In this document: piece after piece, positions 34,575-62,831 of the stretch
Position numbering within the stretch: the first letter of the stretch is position 1
Layout of the letters: every line of letters begins with the position of its first letter
Assembly (NCBI GenBank): GCA_965263355.1
Contig: CBDHHL010000034.1
Location: 1-64,000 of the forward strand
Source of the DNA: Leptolyngbyaceae cyanobacterium
GTDB lineage: Bacteria; Cyanobacteriota; Cyanobacteriia; Phormidesmidales; Phormidesmidaceae
Reading direction: 5' to 3'
Length of the DNA stretch: 64,000 bases
Notes under the pieces: generated by a model
The model's input: only the letters and a program-made list of their open reading frames with translations
Database searches by the model: none
Told to the model about the DNA's origin: nothing
Program-made: the position numbers and the translations under genes

Positions 34575-36035
34575 CTAACGGTAAAATTGAACCTTTACCC
34601 GTTGTTGTGGCGAAAGTTGTTTCCCATGAACAACAACCTGCTTGATTAGTGAGTCAAGAATTATCCTTAGCTCACTGGGGGCTAGTTCTTCCCAGAATTC
34701 AGGATCAGCAGCAACCGTTTCGTAAATGTCAACGTCGTTTGGATCTACGTCTTGCCCAGTGGCTTGCTCTAGCTTTGATAGTTGCTGCTGCTTAATCTGA
34801 ATCACATCACTCAGTTCTGGATCAGCCATTGCCTGTAGCTGCTGTATCTGGTTTCTGAGTTTTATTATTTCTGGGTTCACTTCAGTGTTCGGCTCAGCAA
34901 ATTCTTGAGCAATTTCGAGTGCCCTAGCGCAAACCTGTGAGATCACTTCCTTGAAGAATTGATCCGTTTTAATTGAATTCTTATAAGGGCACTGTCTTTT
35001 CACTCGGCTGTTAATGGTTGATTCTGATCCTCCACGGCAAACCAGATATGAATACGTTTTTCCCTGCCTATGGACAGTGCTATTATTATGCCGACCACCG
35101 CATAAGCCGCATTTAATTTTGCCAGCCAATGGCTTTCTGCTTCTGGGCTTCCCATCGTTCATCGGATTAGGAGCAGAGGCAATATTTTCGACAGTTACTT
35201 GCACAGCTCGCCATCGGTCAGGGTCCATAATCGCTTCATGGTCTCCCTTCCTGACTAGCTCATTAGGCTTGCCAGGGAAATCAACCAGATAACCACGAAT
35301 CACGGGAGATTTAACCCATCGCATAAATCCCTTAGTACTGACAGGGAAGTTTTTAGCAACACCCCATCTATCGGGATGCTTTTCGCCATAACGACCGCAC
35401 ATTGCCCGAATAGTGGCCCGATATCCTCCAAGCTCAATTAGAGTGTCAATCATCTCAATAGCAATTTCCCGATAGGTTTTCCCGTCAGAACCAGGGAAAA
35501 TATCATCATTAATTACTAGCCGCTGGTCACTGTCCTTTTTATAGCCAAATGGCGGATTAACTATCCTGTTTTGACTACGCCTGAACGCATGCCCTTTTAC
35601 GCTGTGTTCTCGTGCCTGGTCCCGTTGATGCTGCGCAAATGTGGCATCCAGGTTAGCTTGCAGGTTCCCAGCTGCACTGGTCAAGTCGATAGGCTTGATC
35701 CCTTTGTCCAGCTCGATTAATTCGCAGTCATTTTCTAAAAGTGCATCCCTGATTTTTACCCACACTCCAATATCTCGATGCCCCCTGGAGTGATACGGGA
35801 CTACAAAGTATTTCTTATTAGGATTTTTCAACCTGGCTAATGCTTTTTGTAAATCCTTGCGTTCGAATATGCCGCCGGATTCAGCGTCAGAATAAATATC
35901 AGTAGGAGCAATGCCGACCGCTTCAAGACGCTCTAAATAACGCTCGGGACTATGGCCCTCTTGCTCCTGCCGCTGCGTCGAAACACGATAGTATCCAATG
36001 GCCTGAGATGGATCGAAGCTACTGCTTGCGGGCAA
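34575..36035 (-). CDS. Large serine recombinase/integrase (XisF-like architecture)
   Basis: GYYRVSTQRQ catalytic Ser, D.ESG, PPFGY, HEAIM, CGLCG zinc ribbon, coiled coil. Confidence 0.93.
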   Translation of the reverse strand: MPASSSFDPSQAIGYYRVSTQRQEQEGHSPERYLERLEAVGIAPTDIYSDAESGGIFERKDLQKALARLKNPNKKYFVVPYHSRGHRDIGVWVKIRDALLENDCELIELDKGIKPIDLTSAAGNLQANLDATFAQHQRDQAREHSVKGHAFRRSQNRIVNPPFGYKKDSDQRLVINDDIFPGSDGKTYREIAIEMIDTLIELGGYRATIRAMCGRYGEKHPDRWGVAKNFPVSTKGFMRWVKSPVIRGYLVDFPGKPNELVRKGDHEAIMDPDRWRAVQVTVENIASAPNPMNDGKPRSRKPLAGKIKCGLCGGRHNNSTVHRQGKTYSYLVCRGGSESTINSRVKRQCPYKNSIKTDQFFKEVISQVCARALEIAQEFAEPNTEVNPEIIKLRNQIQQLQAMADPELSDVIQIKQQQLSKLEQATGQDVDPNDVDIYETVAADPEFWEELAPSELRIILDSLIKQVVVHGKQLSPQQRVKVQFYR

Positions 36036-36206
36036 CTTGACACCTGCTTAACACACCACAAAGCATGATATCATCATTGTTGTACGCCAAGGGTTTAGCC
36101 CTGGCTTAGGAAATAATGCACAACTAAGACGGCATAATGGTAGATCTTTCTCGTCGTGAGTAGATTGTTCCAGCTCATTGAAAGGGATCGAAGTTGATTT
36201 AGCTAA

Positions 36207-36230
36207 AATACCTTACGATTGTAAGGTATT
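36207..36230. promoter_or_regulatory. Perfect 10-bp inverted repeat (PadR operator or att-related site)
   Basis: AATACCTTAC-GATT-GTAAGGTATT just upstream of the PadR-like gene. Confidence 0.55.
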
Positions 36231-36247
36231 AATTATAGGGCTATTCC

Positions 36248-36562
36248 ATGGCACAGCTAGACCTAACTAACACGCAGGAACTATTGATGACCGTTATCGA
36301 GCATCAGCGCTTGTATGGGCTAGAAATTTGTGATTCAATCGATAAAGCAACAAATGGCCAACGCACAATCCCTGTTGGGTCTTTATATCCGATATTAAAA
36401 CGCTTAGAGAATAGAGGTTTTGTCACATCTGAATGGGGCGAGGCTACAGAAAGCGGGGAAGGGGCGCGACGAAAATATTACTCTCTGACTGATGCAGGAA
36501 AAGATTTTTTGAATAAAACACGCGCCATTCGTGAGTTAGTGAATGCAGCTGCTGGCAACTGA
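36248..36562 (+). CDS. PadR-family transcriptional regulator
   Basis: YGLEI, GSLYPILKRLE..GFV.S.W, RRKYYSLT.AG. Confidence 0.95.
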   Translation: MAQLDLTNTQELLMTVIEHQRLYGLEICDSIDKATNGQRTIPVGSLYPILKRLENRGFVTSEWGEATESGEGARRKYYSLTDAGKDFLNKTRAIRELVNAAAGN

Positions 36563-36577
36563 AAATCGGCATCCATC

Positions 36578-36787
36578 TTATGGCTGGGCCGATTGCTCTA
36601 TCCAGCTTGGGACGTAATCGGTTCTATCGCAGTTCATTCCGTATTCCTGAATCAAAGGCAGAAGGAGCCTGTCGGCTACCCTTGATAGCTCCTCGCTCAG
36701 CAGCACTTCAATCGGAATGTTTAGCTGTTGAGCTTTAGTCAGGGTTTTTGAGCGTATGGAGATGGTGATTGAGGAGGCTTCTGTCAT
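36578..36787 (-). CDS. Small hypothetical protein, possibly RHH-like
   Basis: Coupled to the nuclease stop; ITISI strand then helices. Confidence 0.4.
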   Translation of the reverse strand: MTEASSITISIRSKTLTKAQQLNIPIEVLLSEELSRVADRLLLPLIQEYGMNCDRTDYVPSWIEQSAQP

Positions 36788-38481
36788 CATTCCGTAATTC
36801 CTCTTTTCTTGTGGTTCCTTGCGGCGTTAACATCTGCATTTTGCTTCTGTTCAAATAGGCTACAGCTCTCATTTACGCAAATAAACGTGTCTTGGTCTGG
36901 CCTGATGCCTTTTCCCCCGCAACAATGACAGCGTTGTGATGAGTATCTAGCCTCCGTCTCTATGTATAATTTCCCGGCTTCCTCTAATTTAGATTTTGTT
37001 TTAGTTCTAAGGTCGCCCATACAGGCTATTTTCAATGATCTGTTCAATCCTGCCTTAGCTGTTCTGCCGTTTTGCTCGTAATAACTTCCATCTTCAGCTA
37101 ATTTAGGCGTTGTCTGCCTCCCCATGTTAGTTAACGCCGTAGCCTCCCAGGCGATGACATCATAAGTTCTGGCTAACCTGGTTGACAGCTTATGATTGAA
37201 AGCATTTGAACTATTAACAGCTCGCTCATGCAGCCTGGATATTTTATTCCTAAGTTTTTGCTCGTTATTAGTGGCTTCACGCTTCCCACGCTTCCATATT
37301 TGTCCTAGCCGCTTATCATTTTTTTCAGTCATAATGTCAAGCTTGGATTGCAGCTTTTCAATATGATTGTGTATTCGTTGTCTGCTTTCGTTAGGATTAA
37401 ATAAATGACCTTCGTCAGTCGCTACAATTGCCTTAACGCCAGGGTCAATGCCCGCCATATGCCCGGTTCGTTTAGCGCATTTTGAGTCTTCTATTAGCAA
37501 GTATGGCAGCTCATTTTCTATTGACTTTTTCTTGGCTAATGCCGCTTGATAGTCTTCACTGTTAGCTAACGCCTTGGCTTGCTCCTTTTTCCCTTTAATG
37601 CCATCAATAACTTTTTTCTTGATAGCGATTAAAACTCTTTTTTGTCGTTTAAGCTCTAATCTATTTTCTTCTTCCGCTTCACTTTGAGTAGTTAGGCATA
37701 GATAGAAGCCACTCGGTTTTAATATCAGTTTGTAAGTCTTTATTACATAGCCTTCGAGTCTTTTTGAATAGCTGCGATCGCACGGTTCTAAAACTAAGCC
37801 TTGACCGTCGAATTGTCCTTTTTTGAACGGGATGGCTTTTTGATTATTGTTCAGCGTGCTAATTTTACACTGCTTGCCGTCCTTATACTTTGGCTGCTTT
37901 CTGGCGGGCAGTTTCCCGTCTAAATAAGCCTTCCAGGCAACCTCAAAGTCAGCTAGTAGCCCCCCAACAAAATCACTATTGCACGTTAATTCATCAAGAC
38001 CCTGAGAACTTCGTGACGCATTTAGCAACGCCATATTGTCTAGTCCCCATGATTTCCCCTTTAGCCCACGTATTAATGGGACGCCTTCCTTGAAATAAGG
38101 GACTTCGATATATTTATGGGGTTCTGGCTTTATCCGCTCATATGGCTTATCCCCAGCCACTAACTCATAGCCAAGTTTTGTTTTGCCATCGCCATAGTGA
38201 ATCAAAGGGGCTTTATCTGACTTCTTAAAATACGGACCTCCTTTAGCAATCTGACAAGCTGCGCCATTCCAACCGCCACTCTTTGAAAAGCGTAACGGCG
38301 TTCTAATGCAGCCTGATAAGTCGACGCCTTTCTTTTCTGCCCAGGCATACCACTCAAGGCAATGATTATGTAAGGCTACGGCCCGCACATAATTCCACAA
38401 CCATTCAAGCTCTCTGCAAATTTTCTCGTATTTAATCAGTGTTTCAGGGGTCGGCTGGACTTTTACCTTGATCGTCTTCAT
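36787..38481 (-). CDS. Compact type V CRISPR effector candidate (TnpB-derived, Cas12f/V-U-like RuvC nuclease), ~564 aa
   Basis: Likely start MKTIKVKVQPT; RuvC-I GIDPG, RuvC-II AWEAT, SSQRCHCCG..C...C Zn finger, RuvC-III NADVNAARN; adjacent CRISPR array; no tnpA. Confidence 0.85.
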   Translation of the reverse strand: MKTIKVKVQPTPETLIKYEKICRELEWLWNYVRAVALHNHCLEWYAWAEKKGVDLSGCIRTPLRFSKSGGWNGAACQIAKGGPYFKKSDKAPLIHYGDGKTKLGYELVAGDKPYERIKPEPHKYIEVPYFKEGVPLIRGLKGKSWGLDNMALLNASRSSQGLDELTCNSDFVGGLLADFEVAWKAYLDGKLPARKQPKYKDGKQCKISTLNNNQKAIPFKKGQFDGQGLVLEPCDRSYSKRLEGYVIKTYKLILKPSGFYLCLTTQSEAEEENRLELKRQKRVLIAIKKKVIDGIKGKKEQAKALANSEDYQAALAKKKSIENELPYLLIEDSKCAKRTGHMAGIDPGVKAIVATDEGHLFNPNESRQRIHNHIEKLQSKLDIMTEKNDKRLGQIWKRGKREATNNEQKLRNKISRLHERAVNSSNAFNHKLSTRLARTYDVIAWEATALTNMGRQTTPKLAEDGSYYEQNGRTAKAGLNRSLKIACMGDLRTKTKSKLEEAGKLYIETEARYSSQRCHCCGGKGIRPDQDTFICVNESCSLFEQKQNADVNAARNHKKRGITE

Positions 38482-38644
38482 TATTTTGTACGTCGTTTTG
38501 TGGCAGCTCTGGCAGCATATCAATAAAGCGTTCCAATAGGTCTGCTATCGATATATCCCAAAGTCTACAATACTGCTCTAGCTTTTGTTTACGGCTTTGC
38601 TTGATGCGGGCGTAAATCCTGCCTTCTCTATTCTCTTTTCCCAT
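38444..38644 (-). CDS. Ribbon-helix-helix regulator upstream of the effector
   Basis: RIYARI...RKQKL..Y.....SIADLLE.FID.LP pattern; overlaps effector start. Confidence 0.75.
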   Translation of the reverse strand: MGKENREGRIYARIKQSRKQKLEQYCRLWDISIADLLERFIDMLPELPQNDVQNNEDDQGKSPADP

Positions 38645-38689
38645 TTATATTAAAAAATACTTGGCGTACAAAATATAACACGCTAATAT

Positions 38690-38886
38690 AAGGACATCGC
38701 AGTTTGGGCGACAAGGCAGCGGAAACGTTGTTGGATGGCTTCAGCGCTAAGGTTCTCTAGGGGGCTATGGGTATCTTTTGTCGGGAAACCGATAAACACC
38801 AGCCGAAAGGCAAGATAGGAGCAAAAGGAGTCCGTAAGGCCCTTATAGATTCGCCGGATCTATGGCGAACAGTCTCAACTTTTTTT
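38690..38886 (+). ncRNA. Putative tracrRNA/scaffold RNA (~190 nt; 5' end approximate)
   Basis: GAAA-capped hairpins at 38716-31, 38779-94, 38802-11; TATCTT/AAGATA closing stem; hairpin 38845-63; T7 run at 38880-86. Confidence 0.6.
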
Positions 38887-38926
38887 GGCAAAGCTAAGCG
38901 AGGCCAAAAGAAGAACCTTGAAAAAC

Positions 38927-38945
38927 AGGGATTAAAGCTTTGGCA
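38927..38945 (+). other. 19-nt perfect anti-repeat in the CRISPR leader
   Basis: AGGGATTAAAGCTTTGGCA is the reverse complement of repeat nt 3-21. Confidence 0.85.
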
Positions 38946-39017
38946 AAATTGCCATTTTCTGAGCTTTGCCAGAATCGCTCATAAAAGCCTTGCGGCTAAA
39001 GGGATGCAGCTGTTTAC

Positions 39018-39273
39018 GCTGCCAAAGCTTTAATCCCTACCAAGGGACTGAAACGCACCTGGTGGAAACGAACTATTAGCCATGAGCCAAGCTGCCAAAG
39101 CTTTAATCCCTACCAAGGGACTGAAACCTGTTATTGGCTTGAGCTGGTCTATGCGGTCCTGAGCTGCCAAAGCTTCAACCCCTACCAAGGGACTGAAACT
39201 GTAACGTTCCCTGATTTGCGGGGCATGGTGCTATACGCTGCCAAGGCTTCAATCCGTTTCAAGGGGCTGAAAC
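39018..39273 (+). CRISPR. CRISPR mini-array: four 37-bp repeats, three spacers (36, 35, 37 bp)
   Basis: GCTGCCAAAGCTTTAATCCCTACCAAGGGACTGAAAC at 39018 and 39091, variants at 39163 and 39237 (most degenerate); GAAAC end and degeneracy gradient imply + orientation. Confidence 0.97.
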
Positions 39274-39351
39274 CAAAGAAGACATGGACTCTAGTTATTA
39301 CTCTCAGCTAGCTTGGGATACTAGTTGTGTCAACGAGCCCATTCTTCCAAA

Positions 39352-39555
39352 ATGATAGAAATTATATCTCGACATAGTTATCGTGAGTCCTTAGATTCTG
39401 AGGCGCAAGAGCAAATAGTTACGTTATACGTAGATCCTGAGACTGAGCAAGGGAGACTAATAGAAACAACAGACGGCGTTGAAACAAACCGAATAGAGCT
39501 ATCTGCATTAGCAGTCAGTAACCTGTTTGACGCGTTAAAAAACAATGGCGGTTGA
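39352..39555 (+). CDS. Small acidic hypothetical protein downstream of the array
   Basis: ATG 39352 within the 76-aa ORF. Confidence 0.45.
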   Translation: MIEIISRHSYRESLDSEAQEQIVTLYVDPETEQGRLIETTDGVETNRIELSALAVSNLFDALKNNGG

Positions 39556-39557
39556 AG

Positions 39558-40430
39558 TCACTCCGTAATTCCTTTTAGCCCGAGTATAGTTACGACTGAC
39601 CCCACGATTAGCGTAGACCACTCGAATATGTTCTTAATAGTTTCGTGATCCAGGTTCAGTGCGAACGCCGCGATTGCAGCCAATGATACGCCAAGTACAA
39701 GCATCATAAGCTTGATTTTTTTCTCAGCCTTGCGACGTGCGAGTAGCTGGGATTCTTGCTGACGGTTTAATGCACGCTCTTGCTCCAGCGTGCTACTAAG
39801 GTCTAGCAAAACGGAGCTTTGTTCATTAAGCTTTTGGCCAAACTCCTCACGCTCTTTGGAGTATTGAACCTGCATGCGCCCCATGGCTTCAGTGAGCTTT
39901 TCTAGCTGGTATTTGGCCTGCGTGGCTTCCTGTTCGTAGATCCGCCGTTCCATTTGAATAGCTTGGAATTGCTGCAGCGTTGGGGGATCCGTATCATCTC
40001 CCGGCTCTTTTTCTGCAGGCCACTCAAGGAGGCAATAGTACTTTGAGTCAATTAAATCATTTTGGAATTTAGGAAAAATAGTGATGCTTCCTGCAAGGCC
40101 AGGACGGAGCTGCATGAATCCAGTCACAGGACGATGGCCAACCCATACTCGTTGTTTCGACGGCTTCCATTCGCCGTCGACTAAGTGGCCATCGTGAACA
40201 AAATAATCCCAGCCCCTGGGACTTGCCGGGTTCTCTTCTGCTAACAAAGTGCATTGACGAGAGCTAATCCAATTTTGGCAGCGAGCACCGACCCCAATCT
40301 GAATGTGATTTTCTGCAGGTTCAGCTCTGCCAATCGTAATTGGCCCGCGCCTGAGCCTTTCTAGCGAGATTTCGTGTTGCTGATCACTCCCACCTATTTC
40401 GGTTATCAGCAGATACTCTTCGGCTTTCAT
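39558..40430 (-). CDS. FHA-domain, coiled-coil, two-TM protein
   Basis: ITIGR...ISSRQCTL...DG...S FHA-like motifs; long coiled coil; two C-terminal hydrophobic helices. Confidence 0.7.
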   Translation of the reverse strand: MKAEEYLLITEIGGSDQQHEISLERLRRGPITIGRAEPAENHIQIGVGARCQNWISSRQCTLLAEENPASPRGWDYFVHDGHLVDGEWKPSKQRVWVGHRPVTGFMQLRPGLAGSITIFPKFQNDLIDSKYYCLLEWPAEKEPGDDTDPPTLQQFQAIQMERRIYEQEATQAKYQLEKLTEAMGRMQVQYSKEREEFGQKLNEQSSVLLDLSSTLEQERALNRQQESQLLARRKAEKKIKLMMLVLGVSLAAIAAFALNLDHETIKNIFEWSTLIVGSVVTILGLKGITE

Positions 40431-41020: not shown

Positions 41021-42066
41021 TGGCGCAGGTCGACCAAATAGGTAACCCTGGGCCATGTCGCAGCCGATTGCTTTCAACATGTCGGCCTGTTGCTGGGTTT
41101 CCACGCCTTCAGCGATAACTTTGATGCTGAGTTTTTGCGATAGCGCCACAATTGCGTCAACCATTACTCTGGATTCGCGAGCAGGCAGGCCACTAATAAT
41201 AGATCGGTCGAGCTTTACCAGGTCAACTTGGCCTTTCAGCAATCTATCGTAGCTGCAGTATCCGGTCCCAAAGTCGTCCAGGGCGATCTTTACGCCTTTC
41301 CCCTAGCTGACTGAATCCGGCTCTGAATCTCCTCAGAAACAGCCTCAGTCTCCAATATCTCCATATGCCCTCCAGTAGGCAGCTTTTGATCGTGCCAATC
41401 TGCTCTAGCTAGAGTGAACGGTGAGATATTAAAGCTGATCCACTGGCCAATCTTGCTTGAATCTGCCTGGGTTTTCTCGATCACCCAGTAGCACAGTAAA
41501 TGCTCACTGTTTGCCTTTCTCAGTAAAGGCAAGAAATCCCCTGGGAAGATTAATTCATTGTCTTTTGCCCATCTTGACAACGCCTCATAACCAACGGTCT
41601 CATCGGACCTTAGGTCAACTATCGGCTGATAATGCAGGGCAAATCCGTTGTTGTTAATTGCGTATTTTATTTCTGAAAGCCTTTGTGTTTCAACCTCTGT
41701 CAGCTCTTTGTCGCCCAGTTTACTGACTTGGGAAAAGAAATAAAGGAATTCTCCAGACTCAGAATGGAATCCTTCGCAGTGCAACGTGCAAGAAATCCAT
41801 TCTGCTGTTTGTCCATGCTTATAACGCTTTTTCAGCGTGAAAGATTTAAGTTCTCCATTGATTACGCTGCGGAATGGGTTGACCTGAGGCGTTAGATCTT
41901 CAGGATGGCTGATCTGCTGGAACGTTAGGCGCAGCAACGTTTCTCGTTGATAACCCAGTATTTCACACAGAGTCTCATTTACATCCCAGAACTTTCCGTC
42001 TGGCCCAACAATAGCAGCCCCTATCAGGCTGTTCCGTTTAAGTAGCTCTGGGATTCTATGCATCAT
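40979..42066 (-). CDS. PAS-EAL c-di-GMP phosphodiesterase split by a -1 frameshift near 41296-41302
   Basis: PAS (VN..LC..LGY, ISHPED); YQPIVDL, GYEAL.RW, FNISP, EILE; shifted frame continues IALDDFGTGY, KLDRS, IAEGVET, QGYLFGRP. Confidence 0.85.
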
Positions 42067-42228: not shown

Positions 42229-43357
42229 CTAGCTTGCAAGTAAATCCAATAAGCTTAGCTGTTGCTTTTTGGGGGTTTCCTCAGTCGTTGCGGTCTGTTG
42301 TTTTAGCCAGTCTAATCTAGCCTGCTGCGATACAAAGCTTTGTTCTTTGCCGACTTTGCCACGGGCTACATCTACCCAATGAGGATCAATATCAATCCCG
42401 ATAAAATGTCGTCCATGCTTTTTGGCAGCTACTAGAGTATTGCCGGAGCCGCAAAAGCAGTCTAGAACTACTGAATTAGGCTTAGAGCTAGCGTTTATGA
42501 TGTGCGCCATCATGGTCAATGGCTTCTCGCATGGATGCTTACCTGGGTAGCTTTGCACTGTCGGGAAGTCCCATATATCCGTGTAGGGTACGTCTGACGA
42601 TACGATAAACGGTCTACGTAGTTCTTCGTATTGCTGACGTAGTTCTTCGTATTGTTGACGTAGTTCTTCGTATTGTTGAAGTAACCGGGGAATGAGTCTT
42701 GGAGGGTTTTGTATTGGCGTTGAGTTAGGCCCAATTCCCATTGGTGAATTAATACCAAAATGAATGCGAGGCCATGCCCCCACCCGACTTCCCTAAGGCT
42801 AAATGTAATTTGTTTGTTTCAGATATTAGCTTATTGGCTCCTTTCTCCTATCTGGAATATGCTCGCAACGGTTCAAAAACAAACCCGCGCAACTCATCAC
42901 ACTTTGCCTGATAACCTGCTTCGCCTTTAGCTGCGTTATCTGCGCCGTAATGTTCACAAAAGATAATTGATTCCGATGCAGGGAAATAGCCTCTAAGAAT
43001 TTCTTTGCATGATGCTTTATGTCTTCCTTGTTCCTTTCGCCATCGAATATTGTTCAGCACATTAAACCGATCGCTCAACAACACCTCAACTCGTGCTGAC
43101 ATTTTTGTGCTCGCGAAACAATACAGGCTGCCATTAGGTTTTAATATGCGTTGCCATTGCGCGGCTAGCTGGTCAATCCATCTCAAGAATTCTGCTGAAT
43201 TATCCCAGGCGCGATCCCACCATTCGAATTTGCCTTTAGAACCGCCCCCTTTTACCTTAAAAAAAGGCGGGTCAGTTGCTATTAGATCAATGCTGCTATC
43301 AGGGATGCCGTTCATCACTTCCAAGCAATCGCCTTGAATAACTTGATTTAATTCCAT
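42229..43357 (-). pseudogene. N6/N4 DNA methyltransferase (beta class) interrupted by stops and several indels at ~42680-42850
   Basis: DLIATDPPFF in the 5' part; HPCEKP and VLDCFCGSG in the 3' part; linker broken across frames. Confidence 0.8.
42616..42678 (-). repeat. 21-bp tandem repeat x3 encoding QQYEELR
   Basis: ACGTAGTTCTTCGTATTG(C/T)TG three times. Confidence 0.9.
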
Positions 43358-59503: not shown

Positions 59504-59922
59504 GATACGTATGGAGCTTCAAAGCCTAGGGTGTTGTCCTCGTTCACATCAGCCTTAAAAACCAATTTTACTCGGTCTCCAGCGTCTGCGTTGCTGTACT
59601 GGGGCTGCCCAAAGGTTCGATATAACCTCCAGCCATTCCCGTCATTGATTTGCCATAGCTGATCAGGGCCGATCTTCGTTTGCCAGTTGGAACCCAGGCA
59701 TTTTTTTAGAGTTTGCTGAGGGATTGACGACTCCCATGTGTCTAGCAATTCCGTATCTTCTAGCTGGAACCTAATATCAGTGCTCCCTACTTGCCCTAGG
59801 TGACTGAGCAGTGGCGATGGCCTAACCTCTTGTCCCTGGACTGTTCTCAGTCGAGTATTGCGCAGCCCAGCAGACTGGCAGAGGCTGTCGAAGTAGGGGC
59901 CGGTTAGATACTGGAAGTTCAT
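59500..59922 (-). CDS. Putative head closure protein
   Basis: 140 aa, ATGA-coupled; position. Confidence 0.4.
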   Translation of the reverse strand: MNFQYLTGPYFDSLCQSAGLRNTRLRTVQGQEVRPSPLLSHLGQVGSTDIRFQLEDTELLDTWESSIPQQTLKKCLGSNWQTKIGPDQLWQINDGNGWRLYRTFGQPQYSNADAGDRVKLVFKADVNEDNTLGFEAPYVS

Positions 59923-62831
59923 GCAGCGTCCCCCTTAGGCCATAACACTTTACGAGACCAATAATTAGGACTCCATGGGTCATCTTTGGTCAGGTTTCCA
60001 TCCTTATCTCGGATGCCTGCGGATCGGTTCAGGTAATTTGCTTTGGCTTCAGGGCTGTAATTATGGCGATAGTCTTTATCTCCAAATGCGATGAGCATCA
60101 CCCGATCACCTTTTTTGGCAAGCACCTGACGCTTTTTGCCTTTTTGAGTAGCAGGAACGTCCTTATCAATCGTCCACCACTGGCCACGGTATTTTACTTT
60201 GCCATTGCGGCGAGGGAGGGTTGAGATAAGAGTGCCTTGTGCATCACTGCGTTTTTTCTTGGCCTTAGCTTTCCGTTTTGGCTGTGGCTTCTTAGGCTCG
60301 GAGCTGAGTCTGGAAATAGACTTCAGCTGACGCCTTAGGTCATTCAAGTTAGCCATTTGCTCATCACTCCCACCCCTGTCTGGATGGATCTGTCGAGCAA
60401 GATTTTTGTAGAAGCTATCGACAGACTCAGTTGAGCTAATATCTTCGTCTTTAACTCCAAAGTCTTTTATGTCTGCAATTTCAAATAACCCATTCTTTAG
60501 CCAAAGCCCAGGGTCGGCTTTCCCTTTCAGCGCACTTCTGACTTCAGCGGCGATAGATTCACCTTCTTTCCTTTTCGCTGAAATATCTTCTAGCGACACC
60601 ATTGGCCTGTTTTTGTGCGCAAGAAGTCGCTTTTTAATTTCTGGAGTCAATACGTCGGTCGGCTGAGCGATCTTCTTTGGCTGAGCATTTTTCTTGCTTG
60701 TACGCTTCCCCCTAACTTCTTTTACCCGTTTTGCAGTGCCTTTTTTTGCTCGTTTACAGCCTTTCCCCTCGGGCTTTTTCATCCCCACCCAGCCCCTCTG
60801 GGCATTACAAGGTGTCCCGGCTTTCTTCGCATCAACCTTAGCTAGTGCGTCGACCGCTGCGTCCCATTCACGAGAGTCGATACTAAAGTAGCTGCCATTA
60901 GGCCCACGGAATAGAGTTGATTCGCCCTGTTTTTTGCTTAACCGAACTGGTGTGTTAGCCCGCTTAGGTTGCGGGGCTTTAGTGCGCTTGAACATCTCGC
61001 GGGATAGGTTAGCGGCCTTTTTACGGATACTGCTTAACCCCTGGTCGCGACCCCAGCGAGACTCTAGTTTTTCTGCTTCCATGGCTAACTCACGGGCTTG
61101 ACGGGCTCGCTCGTCGGGGTCTTCGATAGCGCGAACCGCTTTAATCTTTTGGTTGAATTCGTTGGTTAGGTTTTTGCGTTCCCCCGCAGCAGCTTTCTTT
61201 TTGGCAGCTTCGATTATTTCTGCAGGAGGTTCTTTTATCTTCAGCGTGGCTCCACCCTGGCCCATCCGCTTAGCTGCGTTCTTCTGGGAGCTGCCGTACT
61301 TTTGGTTGTACTTTTCTGTGGCCAACCGGTATGCCGCTTTAAGAGGCATCGGTTTTTCGCCAAAAATCTCTACCTTGGTGACTTTCCCGTTTTTATTGGT
61401 GTCGTAACCTTCTAGTTCTGAGATAAAGAAATCGTCAGCGTTTCGATACCACTTACTGCGGTCATCAGGGTTATTTCTTATCCGTTCATGCTGAGCATTT
61501 TTACCCTCTGCCACCCAGTCCCCAAATGATTGAGGCGCGTTCGGGTCCAATGATTCCCCGCCTTCCTCTGACTTGGGTATTTTTTTGTAGGCCGATTCAA
61601 ATGCCAGGTCTTTCCCTCTCGGTGCCTTTTTCTTCTGGCTGCGTACTGGCTGAGGCTTATCGGCTGGGAATAGGCTTAGCTGCCCCCTGCGTTCTGCTTT
61701 CTCGGCAGCAGTGATGGTACGAGCTTTCGGAGGTTCGGGGTTCTTACCCCTGCGTTTACGCTCGATACGACGCACTCTGGCAGCCGTCCCAGGCTTAGCT
61801 CTTCGGCAACCTGGCTTAGTCCCTACCCACCCCCGTTGGTTATTGCAGGGCGTGCCGGTTTTGGCGTCTAGCTTCAGCATCGCCTCCAACGCATCCTTCC
61901 TAGCTTTTTGGCATGGTTCGCACTCACAGTCATCGTTACAGCCTTTCTTTCGTCGTCGGGGTTTAGCGTCAGATTTAGTCAGCATGGGCACTCGATACTC
62001 TTCTAGCTCAGCCAATGAGATTTCACGCATCCCACCAAAAAACTCTTTAGGCATGGCCTGCCCATAAATCATGCGTGCTTCAGCTGCATCATTAACACCG
62101 ATAATCATCTTCTCCTCATCAAATGCGCCATCGATTACCTGATCCACCACGAACACCAATGGACTAGCCAGGTTGGTCCCCACGTACACATCAACAGCCA
62201 TACCATCAGCTCCACGGGTACGACGAAAGTGACCATAAGCAGCAGGTAAAACACGGCCATGACGCTTCTCAAAAGGCAGGTACTGTAGACCAATTTCAAA
62301 GCCTTGCCATTTCAAAATACGCTTGACAGGAGTAGCGTCATCAGTGCGAGGCTTTTTTCTGTATTTTTCGTCTTCATCCTCAGCTTTGTAAGCGAATTCG
62401 TCGATGTCATCATCAGTTAGGTGAGGCGCTAACTTGATGTATTTTCTATATAATTCGATACTTTTTTTTATGTCTTTAAGCTCTTGCTGAACTCCTTCTG
62501 TGTCAGTCTCCATGGCACTTTCTGCTACGTCTGGGCCCTCCTTGATCCAACGCTCTATGTCTTTCATCCCCTGAAAATCATCATCAAGTTGCTTGTAGAT
62601 ATGCTTTGACATTCCTTCGTTAGTGTCCCGAATCCATTCACGGGCGGCAGTCTCGTCCCAATGACTATCAATAAAGTCGACGATTGCCTTTTTCCGGGTT
62701 GCTTCGTCCCGTAGATTGGGGCCTTTTTTGCGAGCCTTCGATCTCACGCAGCTTCCTAACGTGCCACTCCAGCTTCCCTTGCAAGGGCGGCTGTCAGTTC
62801 TTCGTTTTGGGGCGAGTGCTGTGGTTGTCAT
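59919..62831 (-). CDS. 970-aa multidomain head-associated (polyvalent-type) protein
   Basis: Inorganic-pyrophosphatase-like domain (YGH...T.GADG..VDVYVG...FDE.K), J-domain-like HPDRGG, C-terminal FGD..Y...SPNYWSRKVLW domain, QLSLF. Confidence 0.75.
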   Translation of the reverse strand: MTTTALAPKRRTDSRPCKGSWSGTLGSCVRSKARKKGPNLRDEATRKKAIVDFIDSHWDETAAREWIRDTNEGMSKHIYKQLDDDFQGMKDIERWIKEGPDVAESAMETDTEGVQQELKDIKKSIELYRKYIKLAPHLTDDDIDEFAYKAEDEDEKYRKKPRTDDATPVKRILKWQGFEIGLQYLPFEKRHGRVLPAAYGHFRRTRGADGMAVDVYVGTNLASPLVFVVDQVIDGAFDEEKMIIGVNDAAEARMIYGQAMPKEFFGGMREISLAELEEYRVPMLTKSDAKPRRRKKGCNDDCECEPCQKARKDALEAMLKLDAKTGTPCNNQRGWVGTKPGCRRAKPGTAARVRRIERKRRGKNPEPPKARTITAAEKAERRGQLSLFPADKPQPVRSQKKKAPRGKDLAFESAYKKIPKSEEGGESLDPNAPQSFGDWVAEGKNAQHERIRNNPDDRSKWYRNADDFFISELEGYDTNKNGKVTKVEIFGEKPMPLKAAYRLATEKYNQKYGSSQKNAAKRMGQGGATLKIKEPPAEIIEAAKKKAAAGERKNLTNEFNQKIKAVRAIEDPDERARQARELAMEAEKLESRWGRDQGLSSIRKKAANLSREMFKRTKAPQPKRANTPVRLSKKQGESTLFRGPNGSYFSIDSREWDAAVDALAKVDAKKAGTPCNAQRGWVGMKKPEGKGCKRAKKGTAKRVKEVRGKRTSKKNAQPKKIAQPTDVLTPEIKKRLLAHKNRPMVSLEDISAKRKEGESIAAEVRSALKGKADPGLWLKNGLFEIADIKDFGVKDEDISSTESVDSFYKNLARQIHPDRGGSDEQMANLNDLRRQLKSISRLSSEPKKPQPKRKAKAKKKRSDAQGTLISTLPRRNGKVKYRGQWWTIDKDVPATQKGKKRQVLAKKGDRVMLIAFGDKDYRHNYSPEAKANYLNRSAGIRDKDGNLTKDDPWSPNYWSRKVLWPKGDAA

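Follow-up and report, generated by a model that had tools for sequence, protein, structure and literature searches.

Type V-P CRISPR-Cas systems, whose effector is Cas12p or the 'Cas12 hacker', have been described in a preprint (10.1101/2025.01.20.633832) with structures deposited as PDB 9JFS and 9JG3. In the parts of that account available to us, the tracrRNA measures 185 nt, of which 118 nt were resolved together with 10 nt of the repeat. The repeat's AAAC forms a pseudoknot with tracrRNA 7G-10U, 77C/78G/79A contact 42U/43U/64G, the PAM is GTN and activity depends on TrxA. The same text likens the stems to those of omega RNA, describes Cas12 tracrRNAs in general as forming a pseudoknot with the 3' end of the repeat, covers 12 proteins and, in the portions seen, names no host.

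Here, we analyse a related locus in a 64-kb stretch of cyanobacterial assembly (the window). We are confident that positions 38696-38876 represent a tracrRNA of the Cas12p family, judged by its sequence, and very likely the guide scaffold of a divergent 564-aa effector, predicted to grip the last 11 bases of the repeat in two segments. The features of the locus are listed in Table 1.

Table 1. Features of the cassette and of related loci (window coordinates unless a locus is named)
Feature	Position	Strand	Remarks
Left copy of 19-nt direct repeat	36787..36805	.	Overlaps the effector's last codons
Cas12p-like effector, 564 aa	36787..38481	-	RuvC D346/E446/D550 (D378/E478/D582 of solved Cas12p); zinc finger; thioredoxin-binding-type segment with C76 (C127 of solved Cas12p)
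66-aa ORF, likely ribbon-helix-helix/CopG-type regulator	38444..38644	-	Overlaps effector start
Predicted sigma-70 promoter	38661..38689	+	TTGGCG-17-TAATAT, 6 nt before predicted start A38696
tracrRNA core	38696..38876	+	Five stems and anti-repeat; covariance model R1
Stem 1	38697..38711	+	Loop GTTT 38702-38705 (positions 7-10), predicted pseudoknot with the repeat's final AAAC
Stem 2	38715..38732	+	GAAA loop; variable in family
Stem 3	38738..38822	+	GCTTC 38738-42 / GGAGC 38818-22; encloses 75-nt insert with two GAAA hairpins
Stem 4	38825..38844	+	Conserved GNRA loop GTAA 38834-37; predicted docking on stem 3
Stem 5	38850..38869	+	TTCGCC-GGATCTAT-GGCGAA, after conserved ATAGA linker
Anti-repeat CAGTCTC	38870..38876	+	Predicted pairing with repeat nt 27-33 (GGGACTG)
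Contracted type I-D-like leader, 141 nt	38877..39017	+	T7 38880-86; TTGGC 38885 (-133); GCCAAA 38903 (-115); AGAACC 38912 (-106); GCCAGA 38968 (-50)
Perfect 19-nt anti-repeat to repeat nt 3-21	38927..38945	+	Inside leader
CRISPR array	39018..39273	+	Four 37-nt repeats (100, 100, 95, 84%); spacers 39055-90, 39128-62, 39200-36
76-aa ORF, no known family	39325..39555	+	Inside cassette
Right copy of 19-nt direct repeat	39558..39576	.	Bounds 2.8-kb cassette
Single-guide-type copies	L299:29563-29689 (CrV-01T, MH636380); L276:273-386, 854-967; L100:603-718; L107:7469-7582	-	

The phage cassette and its effector

The window encodes portal and major capsid proteins, SSB, ERF, Bro-N, a DnaB helicase, ThyX and a serine recombinase, and is, by its gene content, a tailed phage genome. 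The effector gene (minus strand) and the array (plus strand) flank the tracrRNA region. The two copies of the 19-nt direct repeat bound the 2.8 kb from the effector stop to the next gene, and both genes end in GITE followed by a stop. The GC content of the cassette is 0.437, compared with 0.474 and 0.484 in its flanks. Contigs in two runs of one sample join position 36774 to 39565. This empty-site form is weak evidence, as the short side offers just 24 bases that are 80% alike. Within this phage group, the system probably represents an optional module. The 66-aa ORF had no Pfam match, and its similarity of 0.92-0.93 to CopG/RHH clusters in a feature search is a lead only. Neither cas1 nor cas2 was found among the 82 window ORFs scanned in Pfam, and an Rfam search of the 64 kb returned no match.

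Beside the cassette, an XisF-like serine recombinase faces a PadR-family regulator (34575-36562), a pair that suggests a temperate phage. Elsewhere in the window, a minus-strand phage gene with PAS and partial EAL domains (41290-42066) encodes a possible c-di-GMP signalling protein, a DNA methyltransferase-like ORF holds three 21-nt tandem copies (42616-42683), and a 970-aa protein with an inorganic pyrophosphatase-like domain adjoins the portal gene (59919-62831, minus strand).

By sequence and predicted fold, the effector is Cas12p-like (type V-P), with intact RuvC residues, and not a member of the Cas12f or Cas12k families, which a first, sequence-only reading of this DNA had taken as its models. 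Its best PDB match was Cas12p 9JFS (phmmer, E 8e-113; next match 4e-9). The predicted fold (pLDDT 85.7) matched Cas12p in Foldseek with an E-value of 2e-45 and a TM-score of 0.77, the next family reaching 2e-11; among other Cas12 proteins, Cas12f stood at about 1e-8 and Cas12k at 9e-5. The best NCBIfam and PADLOC profiles were those of type V-U2 (C2c8), an identity that we rejected, as the score against the NCBIfam model NF038192 (172.7 bits) lies below its cut-off of 350.

The window effector is 44.5% identical to the protein of the related locus L003, in which every one of the 21 residues that the Cas12p preprint text numbers is present. The L003 RNA likewise has G7-U10, U42, U43, G64 and C77-G78-A79, and its anti-repeat ends at 118, with CAACUA (113-118) facing the repeat's UAGUUG. 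Since L003 matches the solved Cas12p in both residues and nucleotides, we consider the family alignment to be anchored to the solved system. In the residue map against L003, the catalytic triad is in register (Table 1) and all four PAM-contact residues are kept (D148, N213, Q214 and K278). Eight of the 14 named thioredoxin-pocket residues are identical (W44, Y45, W47, L55, I59, L63, C76 and I78); in the others, L51 is changed to K, F105 to V, I110 to C, V113 to T and I172 to P, and W102 is absent. Only two of the seven basic residues of TB.b are in register, and the 50-residue REC insert (residues 52-102) is missing. In a quick tree, the window effector grouped with L001 in an 11-row subclade, apart from the L003 group, and L001 was the only member of this subclade obtained in searches for closer relatives with DNA context.

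Two further observations concern the catalytic and PAM-contacting positions of relatives. In P0041 and P0044, which belong to the window's subclade, the first and last-aligned catalytic columns are K, changed or missing, and these proteins are possibly nuclease-dead. In the clade with GAAC repeats (L103, L107, L174), PAM-contact residues differ as well: D197 is replaced by V/T, N261 by L and Q262 by Y. From its sequence, this clade may use another PAM.

The probable tracrRNA core and its predicted pairing with the repeat

Related loci were collected from viral contigs (14), genomes (6 full-length of 79), metagenomes and GenBank phages; wherever they are named, these relatives are cyanobacterial or cyanophage. 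The effector, the conserved RNA and the array are co-directional in most loci and divergent in L103-L107 and the window. Unguided RNAalifold on 25 homologues recovered stems 1, 4 and 5, with double changes in 11 of 16 pairs. A covariance model, R1, was then built from the 15 of these homologues that aligned consistently, excluding the window, with a 30-pair structure set by hand. In this structure, which was derived from the same rows on which its pairing was scored, 94.9% of the cells are paired and 20 of the 30 pairs show double changes, a result equalled by none of 500 shuffles and compared with 31-49% for slid controls. R1 matches the window at 38696-38877 over its full length (positions 1-119), with 50.9 bits and an E-value of 1.2e-10. 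With filters off, this region is still the top hit in the 64 kb (29.1 bits; next 9.8). The sequence-only reading had proposed a tracrRNA-type scaffold between effector and array, to be checked with a covariance model of homologous loci; the model bears the proposal out. Loose tracrRNA motif scans gave mostly chance hits: at least 123 stretches in one, and in another a single match inside a terminase intein region.

The predicted promoter has the same register as TTGACA-17-TAATAT-6-A in L003 and several homologues, which puts GTTT at positions 7-10; with 8 of 12 consensus matches, it falls under the scan threshold. Stem 1 is closed by a U-A pair in the window, where 40 other rows have C-G. Counted by model columns, the stem 3 interior is 77 nt long, compared with 9-42 in other rows. 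Of 41 distinct rows, 40 have a GNRA loop on stem 4; only the weakest hit departs from this. All seven model pairs of stem 5 show double changes among homologues, and the sixth stem of the Cas12p tracrRNA would correspond to the anti-repeat duplex.

The individual strings picked out by the sequence-only reading are all present: GCAGCG-GAAA-CGTTGT (38716-31), TGTCGG-GAAA-CCGATA (38779-94), GCC-GAAA-GGC (38802-11), TATCTT (38772) and AAGATA (38812), CC-GTAA-GG (38832-39), ATAGATTC (38845) and GGATCTAT (38856), and the T7 run. What it made of them stood only in part. All three GAAA hairpins hold up in ensemble folding (pair probabilities 0.99, 0.99 and 1.0), but two of them belong to an insert specific to this lineage and the other forms the tip of the variable stem 2, leaving the GTAA of stem 4 as the only family-conserved GNRA loop. 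The richness in GNRA hairpins is real but modest: three have a stem of 3 bp or more, where shuffles average 0.5, and this count is reached by 1.5% of 2000 shuffles and by 2 of 648 tiles of 197 nt from both strands of the window. The proposed three-way junction may or may not form: the closure of two hairpins by TATCTT/AAGATA has a pair probability of 0.03, and its outer pair is broken in a strain allele. A last hairpin formed by ATAGATTC and GGATCTAT has a probability of 0.0, compared with 0.91 for TTCGCC/GGCGAA of stem 5. The T7 run, taken as the 3' end, was not called as a terminator and overlaps the TTGGC motif of the leader.

Folding of the window RNA alone is less clear-cut. The whole region has a z-score of -1.9, with 9 of 200 shuffles equally good. 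In the naked RNA, stems 1, 3 and 4 have probabilities of 0.04, 0.0 and 0.0. Most homologues behave differently: a probability of 0.5 or more is found for stem 3 in 37 of 41 rows and for stem 4 in 34 of 40. Forcing the window RNA into the family fold carries a penalty of about 6 kcal/mol (-54.1 vs -59.9). The bases for docking between stems 3 and 4 (U38740, U38741, G38821 and GUAA) are kept, yet naked folding disfavours both stems. This predicted misfolding means that either the protein or co-transcriptional folding rescues the RNA, or the RNA is impaired.

A strain allele, seen in contigs from three runs of one study, carries 10 differences within 38696-38878, and none of the 10 substitutions falls in stems 1, 2, 3 or 5, the pseudoknot loop or the anti-repeat. 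Five of the six touched pairs of the family-fold model are kept and one is broken; there is one double change (T38781C with A38792G), and GTAA becomes GTGA, still a GNRA loop. The allele also keeps all four touched pairs of the alternative minimum-energy fold. The allele therefore supports structure without favouring one architecture of the insert.

Pairing with the repeat was assessed across cassettes. Of 50 model hits, 34 were examined and 19 had a detectable array; dropping two near-duplicates left 17. The loop at positions 7-10 forms four of four Watson-Crick pairs with the end of the cognate repeat in all 17. GTTC:GAAC replaces GTTT:AAAC in two loci, a covariation that counts as one event because it is confined to one clade. 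In a swap test, the segment after stem 5 formed 6.65 pairs with the cognate repeat, from position -5 upstream, and 3.36 with non-cognate repeats (n=17). No permutation out of 20000, with related loci treated as independent, reached the cognate pairing, and the difference was similar for the 13 distinct repeats (6.85 vs 3.51); the weakest cognate cases had 3 and 4 pairs. This covariation points to a pairing of GTTT (38702-05) with AAAC and of CAGTCTC (38870-76) with GGGACTG. The idea that two separate segments meet the repeat 3' end is thus supported by the swap test and the loop pairing, albeit with other segments than those first proposed. It follows from the family match and the repeat pairing that this scaffold is what an sgRNA would need, as had been suggested. 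Two marks of type V-P, the AAAC:GUUU pseudoknot at positions 7-10 and six stems, were found by sequence comparison alone.

Some relatives carry apparent natural single-guide cassettes, in which a tracrRNA copy is followed by a linker, a repeat 3' end complementary to the anti-repeat and the pseudoknot loop, and a possible guide (Table 1). In CrV-01T, three strong tracrRNA copies lie in 20000-58000, where no array was detected. Multiple tracrRNA-leader-array modules per locus occur in L002 and in L103, L104, L106 and L107; in L002, the two modules differ in their repeats, and the anti-repeat of each matches its own.

Leader, anti-repeat and spacers

The array is oriented on the plus strand, because its repeats decay at the far end. 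Two motifs of its leader are known from type I-D systems, TTGGC as motif III and GCCAAA as motif I, according to the sections consulted of PMC6607411. Most Cas12p leaders have TTGGC near -189, GCCAAA near -150 and -50, and AGAACC near -139. Three host leaders show this same phasing, and two of these adjoin cas1d-cas2. The motifs were missing from a fourth host array, which has a different repeat type, and three further loci held no leader. Compared with the host leaders, that of the window has one mismatch in the -50 motif and a distal part contracted by about 35-55 nt. The host type I-D phasing in the arrays of relatives suggests how phage systems without adaptation genes could gain spacers.

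The leader also contains a perfect 19-nt anti-repeat that the sequence-only reading had not mentioned. Its duplex with the repeat has an energy of -39.1 kcal/mol, compared with a shuffle mean of -19.8 (0 of 300 shuffles as low), and the longest match in 453 other tiles was 9 nt. In many homologues, stem 5 is immediately followed by a long anti-repeat (cognate -24.5 vs -16.6 kcal/mol); the window has it split into 7 nt after stem 5 and the perfect 19 nt, 50 nt further on. When 38696-39074 was folded without constraints, both anti-repeat duplexes formed (probabilities 0.68 for CAGTCTC and 1.0) and AAAC was left free, with a z-score of -4.2. Across the family, the signal was uneven. In an unanchored test, 12 of 17 leaders were no different from shuffles; in an anchored one, the anchor was missing from 7 of 17 loci, and among the other 10 the cognate repeat came first in 5. 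Leaving the window out, cognate repeats scored -18.5 vs -13.0 (n=9), with the own repeat first in only 4 of 9. Leader-repeat hairpins are known in type II-A and VI systems (PMC13187072, in the portions consulted), and no description of a role for a leader anti-repeat in Cas12p-like systems was found in the literature searched.

Targets of the spacers were not found in the window, in GenBank phages, in IMG/VR (exact 25-mer, spacer 1 only), in plasmids (only repeat matches and chance hits at E 3) or in 401 genomes of the phylum of G001. A match of L304 to spacer 3 (23/24, flank TGT) has an E-value of 0.0014 per genome, no better than chance over 401 genomes, and was discarded. Other spacers joined to the same repeat occur in contigs of the same study.

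Competing readings, proposed mechanism and described systems

The tracrRNAs of Cas12f and Cas12k pair with the repeat through two segments, and the sequence-only reading assigned this role to TTCAG (38740-44) and CCCTT (38840-44). Both are indeed exact 5-nt complements of the repeat's 3' part, but such matches are at chance level (4 seen vs 2.2 expected; 21% of shuffles), and among 16 homologous tracrRNAs, one has an equivalent of the CTGAA type and none has one of the AAGGG type. Both tracts sit inside covarying internal stems, TTCAG overlapping stem 3 and CCCTT forming the 3' arm of stem 4, and the repeat's terminal C and the pseudoknot would be left unexplained. We give this pairing hardly any credence. 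The same applies to a TnpB-type omega RNA taking its guide from flanking DNA, or to the region being part of an 88-codon ORF (38767-39033). The effector does score above the cut-off of NCBIfam guided_TnpB, the Cas12p stems resemble omega RNA in the preprint sections seen, and the reading frame is open. However, the window has no repeat 3' end fused behind the anti-repeat, pairing follows the array repeat, and the RNA lies upstream of the effector on the opposite strand instead of at an element's right end; the ORF has no PHROGs match, and the strain allele carries a 1-nt insertion inside it.

A reading that deserves slightly more attention, while still improbable, is that of an impaired RNA descended from a tracrRNA, misfolded because of its 75-nt insert and shortened anti-repeat, in a decaying cassette. 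The greater stability of the alternative fold, unlike most homologues, would fit, as would the presence of only three spacers and a contracted leader with a mismatched -50 motif. Against it, the tertiary positions, the promoter register and the catalytic residues are all kept, the allele conserves pairing, and the same repeat is joined to other spacers in the same study's contigs. Within the preferred explanation of a functional Cas12p-family tracrRNA, there is one real though lesser possibility that concerns the leader step only: the tracrRNA could end at the T7 run, and the 19-nt anti-repeat could be a DNA-level feature, either an adaptation site or an inverted-repeat relic. The 3' part of the anti-repeat coincides with the TTGGC leader motif, its 5' part, AGGGATT, is frequent at this place in leaders, and in the solved complex, as far as the preprint was available, no more than 118 nt of the tracrRNA and 10 nt of the repeat are resolved. 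Yet no anti-repeat is seen in the three host leaders (two near-identical) with the same phasing (-10 to -14 kcal/mol), the segment follows the cognate repeat among Cas12p loci when the window is left out, and the published 185-nt tracrRNA extends, in our mapping, past the TTGGC/GCCAAA pair in L003.

Taking the region as a functional tracrRNA, we propose the following mechanism. From its anatomy, transcription would run from A38696 through the T7 run into leader and array. GUUU (38702-05) would bind AAAC, and CAGUCUC (38870-76) would bind GGGACUG of the repeat. By analogy with the solved relative, the GUAA loop of stem 4 would dock on stem 3, the effector would bind the folded core, and the complex would cut double-stranded DNA beside a GTN-type PAM, probably with host thioredoxin. 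The leader anti-repeat would pair with repeat nt 3-21, opening the repeat's own hairpin and offering a duplex for processing by a host RNase, and may stand in for the roughly 30-nt anti-repeat found directly after stem 5 in most homologues. RNase III, which processes other tracrRNA systems, would be a candidate. Host type I-D Cas1-Cas2 could add spacers, the array copying their leader motifs, and the likely purpose would be attack on competing phages or mobile DNA.

More speculatively, and with rather low confidence, tracrRNA, leader and array could be one self-folding transcript, in which the pseudoknot loop and the 7-nt and 19-nt anti-repeats clamp 30 of the 37 bases of the first repeat. It would be a natural single-guide precursor favouring the newest spacer. 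Its leader would have two functions, as an integration signal borrowed from host I-D systems and as the half of the tracrRNA used for processing. The compact 564-aa subclade may also have lost or reshaped its thioredoxin dependence. Such a dual leader role was not found in the literature searched.

The locus offers a full set of parts, open to testing, for a Cas12p that is about 60 residues shorter than the solved protein, and its subclade is a natural test of the residues required for thioredoxin activation. It also yields a corrected sgRNA design, in which the core 38696-38876 is linked to the repeat's last 11 bases and the 75-nt insert is the obvious trimming site.

Compared with other described systems, the likeness is partial. 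Cas12f and Cas12k tracrRNAs, going by the Cas12p preprint, share the pseudoknot with the repeat 3' end that is predicted here. Type V-K (Cas12k) was rejected as an identity, the RuvC triad of the window being intact and no Pfam match to Tn7-like genes appearing among the ORFs scanned. The type V-U2 (C2c8) system of cyanophage vB_AphaS-CL131 is, in the parts available of PMC6293099, also a minimal cyanophage locus without adaptation genes, but the match to its protein covers only 38% of the length and R1 finds nothing in the CL131 locus (L175). The window leader shares the TTGGC and GCCAAA motifs with type I-D leaders, in the sections seen of PMC6607411. As in the II-A and VI hairpins of PMC13187072, to the extent consulted, a leader segment is complementary to the first repeat and competes with the repeat's own fold; those hairpins block extraneous crRNA, whereas in the window the guide follows the repeat and the duplex would free the tracrRNA-pairing 3' end.

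The closest likeness is to Cas12p. Both systems are phage-borne, with an effector of 500-700 aa in a WED/REC/TB/PI/RuvC/ZF layout, an adjacent array and no adaptation genes found. They have in common a 37-nt repeat ending in AAAC, GUUU at tracrRNA 7-10, the stem 3 and stem 4 positions, the RuvC triad, the PAM-contact residues and the cysteine C76 (C127). Unlike the solved Cas12p, the window effector belongs to a sister subclade at 44.5% identity and lacks the 50-residue REC insert, with L51 and W102 lost; its RNA has a 75-nt insert in stem 3 and an anti-repeat of 7 + 19 nt, and its gene is divergent from the tracrRNA and array, with a small RHH-like gene between. The locus is a divergent form of the published system, with a compact effector, an expanded stem 3 and a split anti-repeat.
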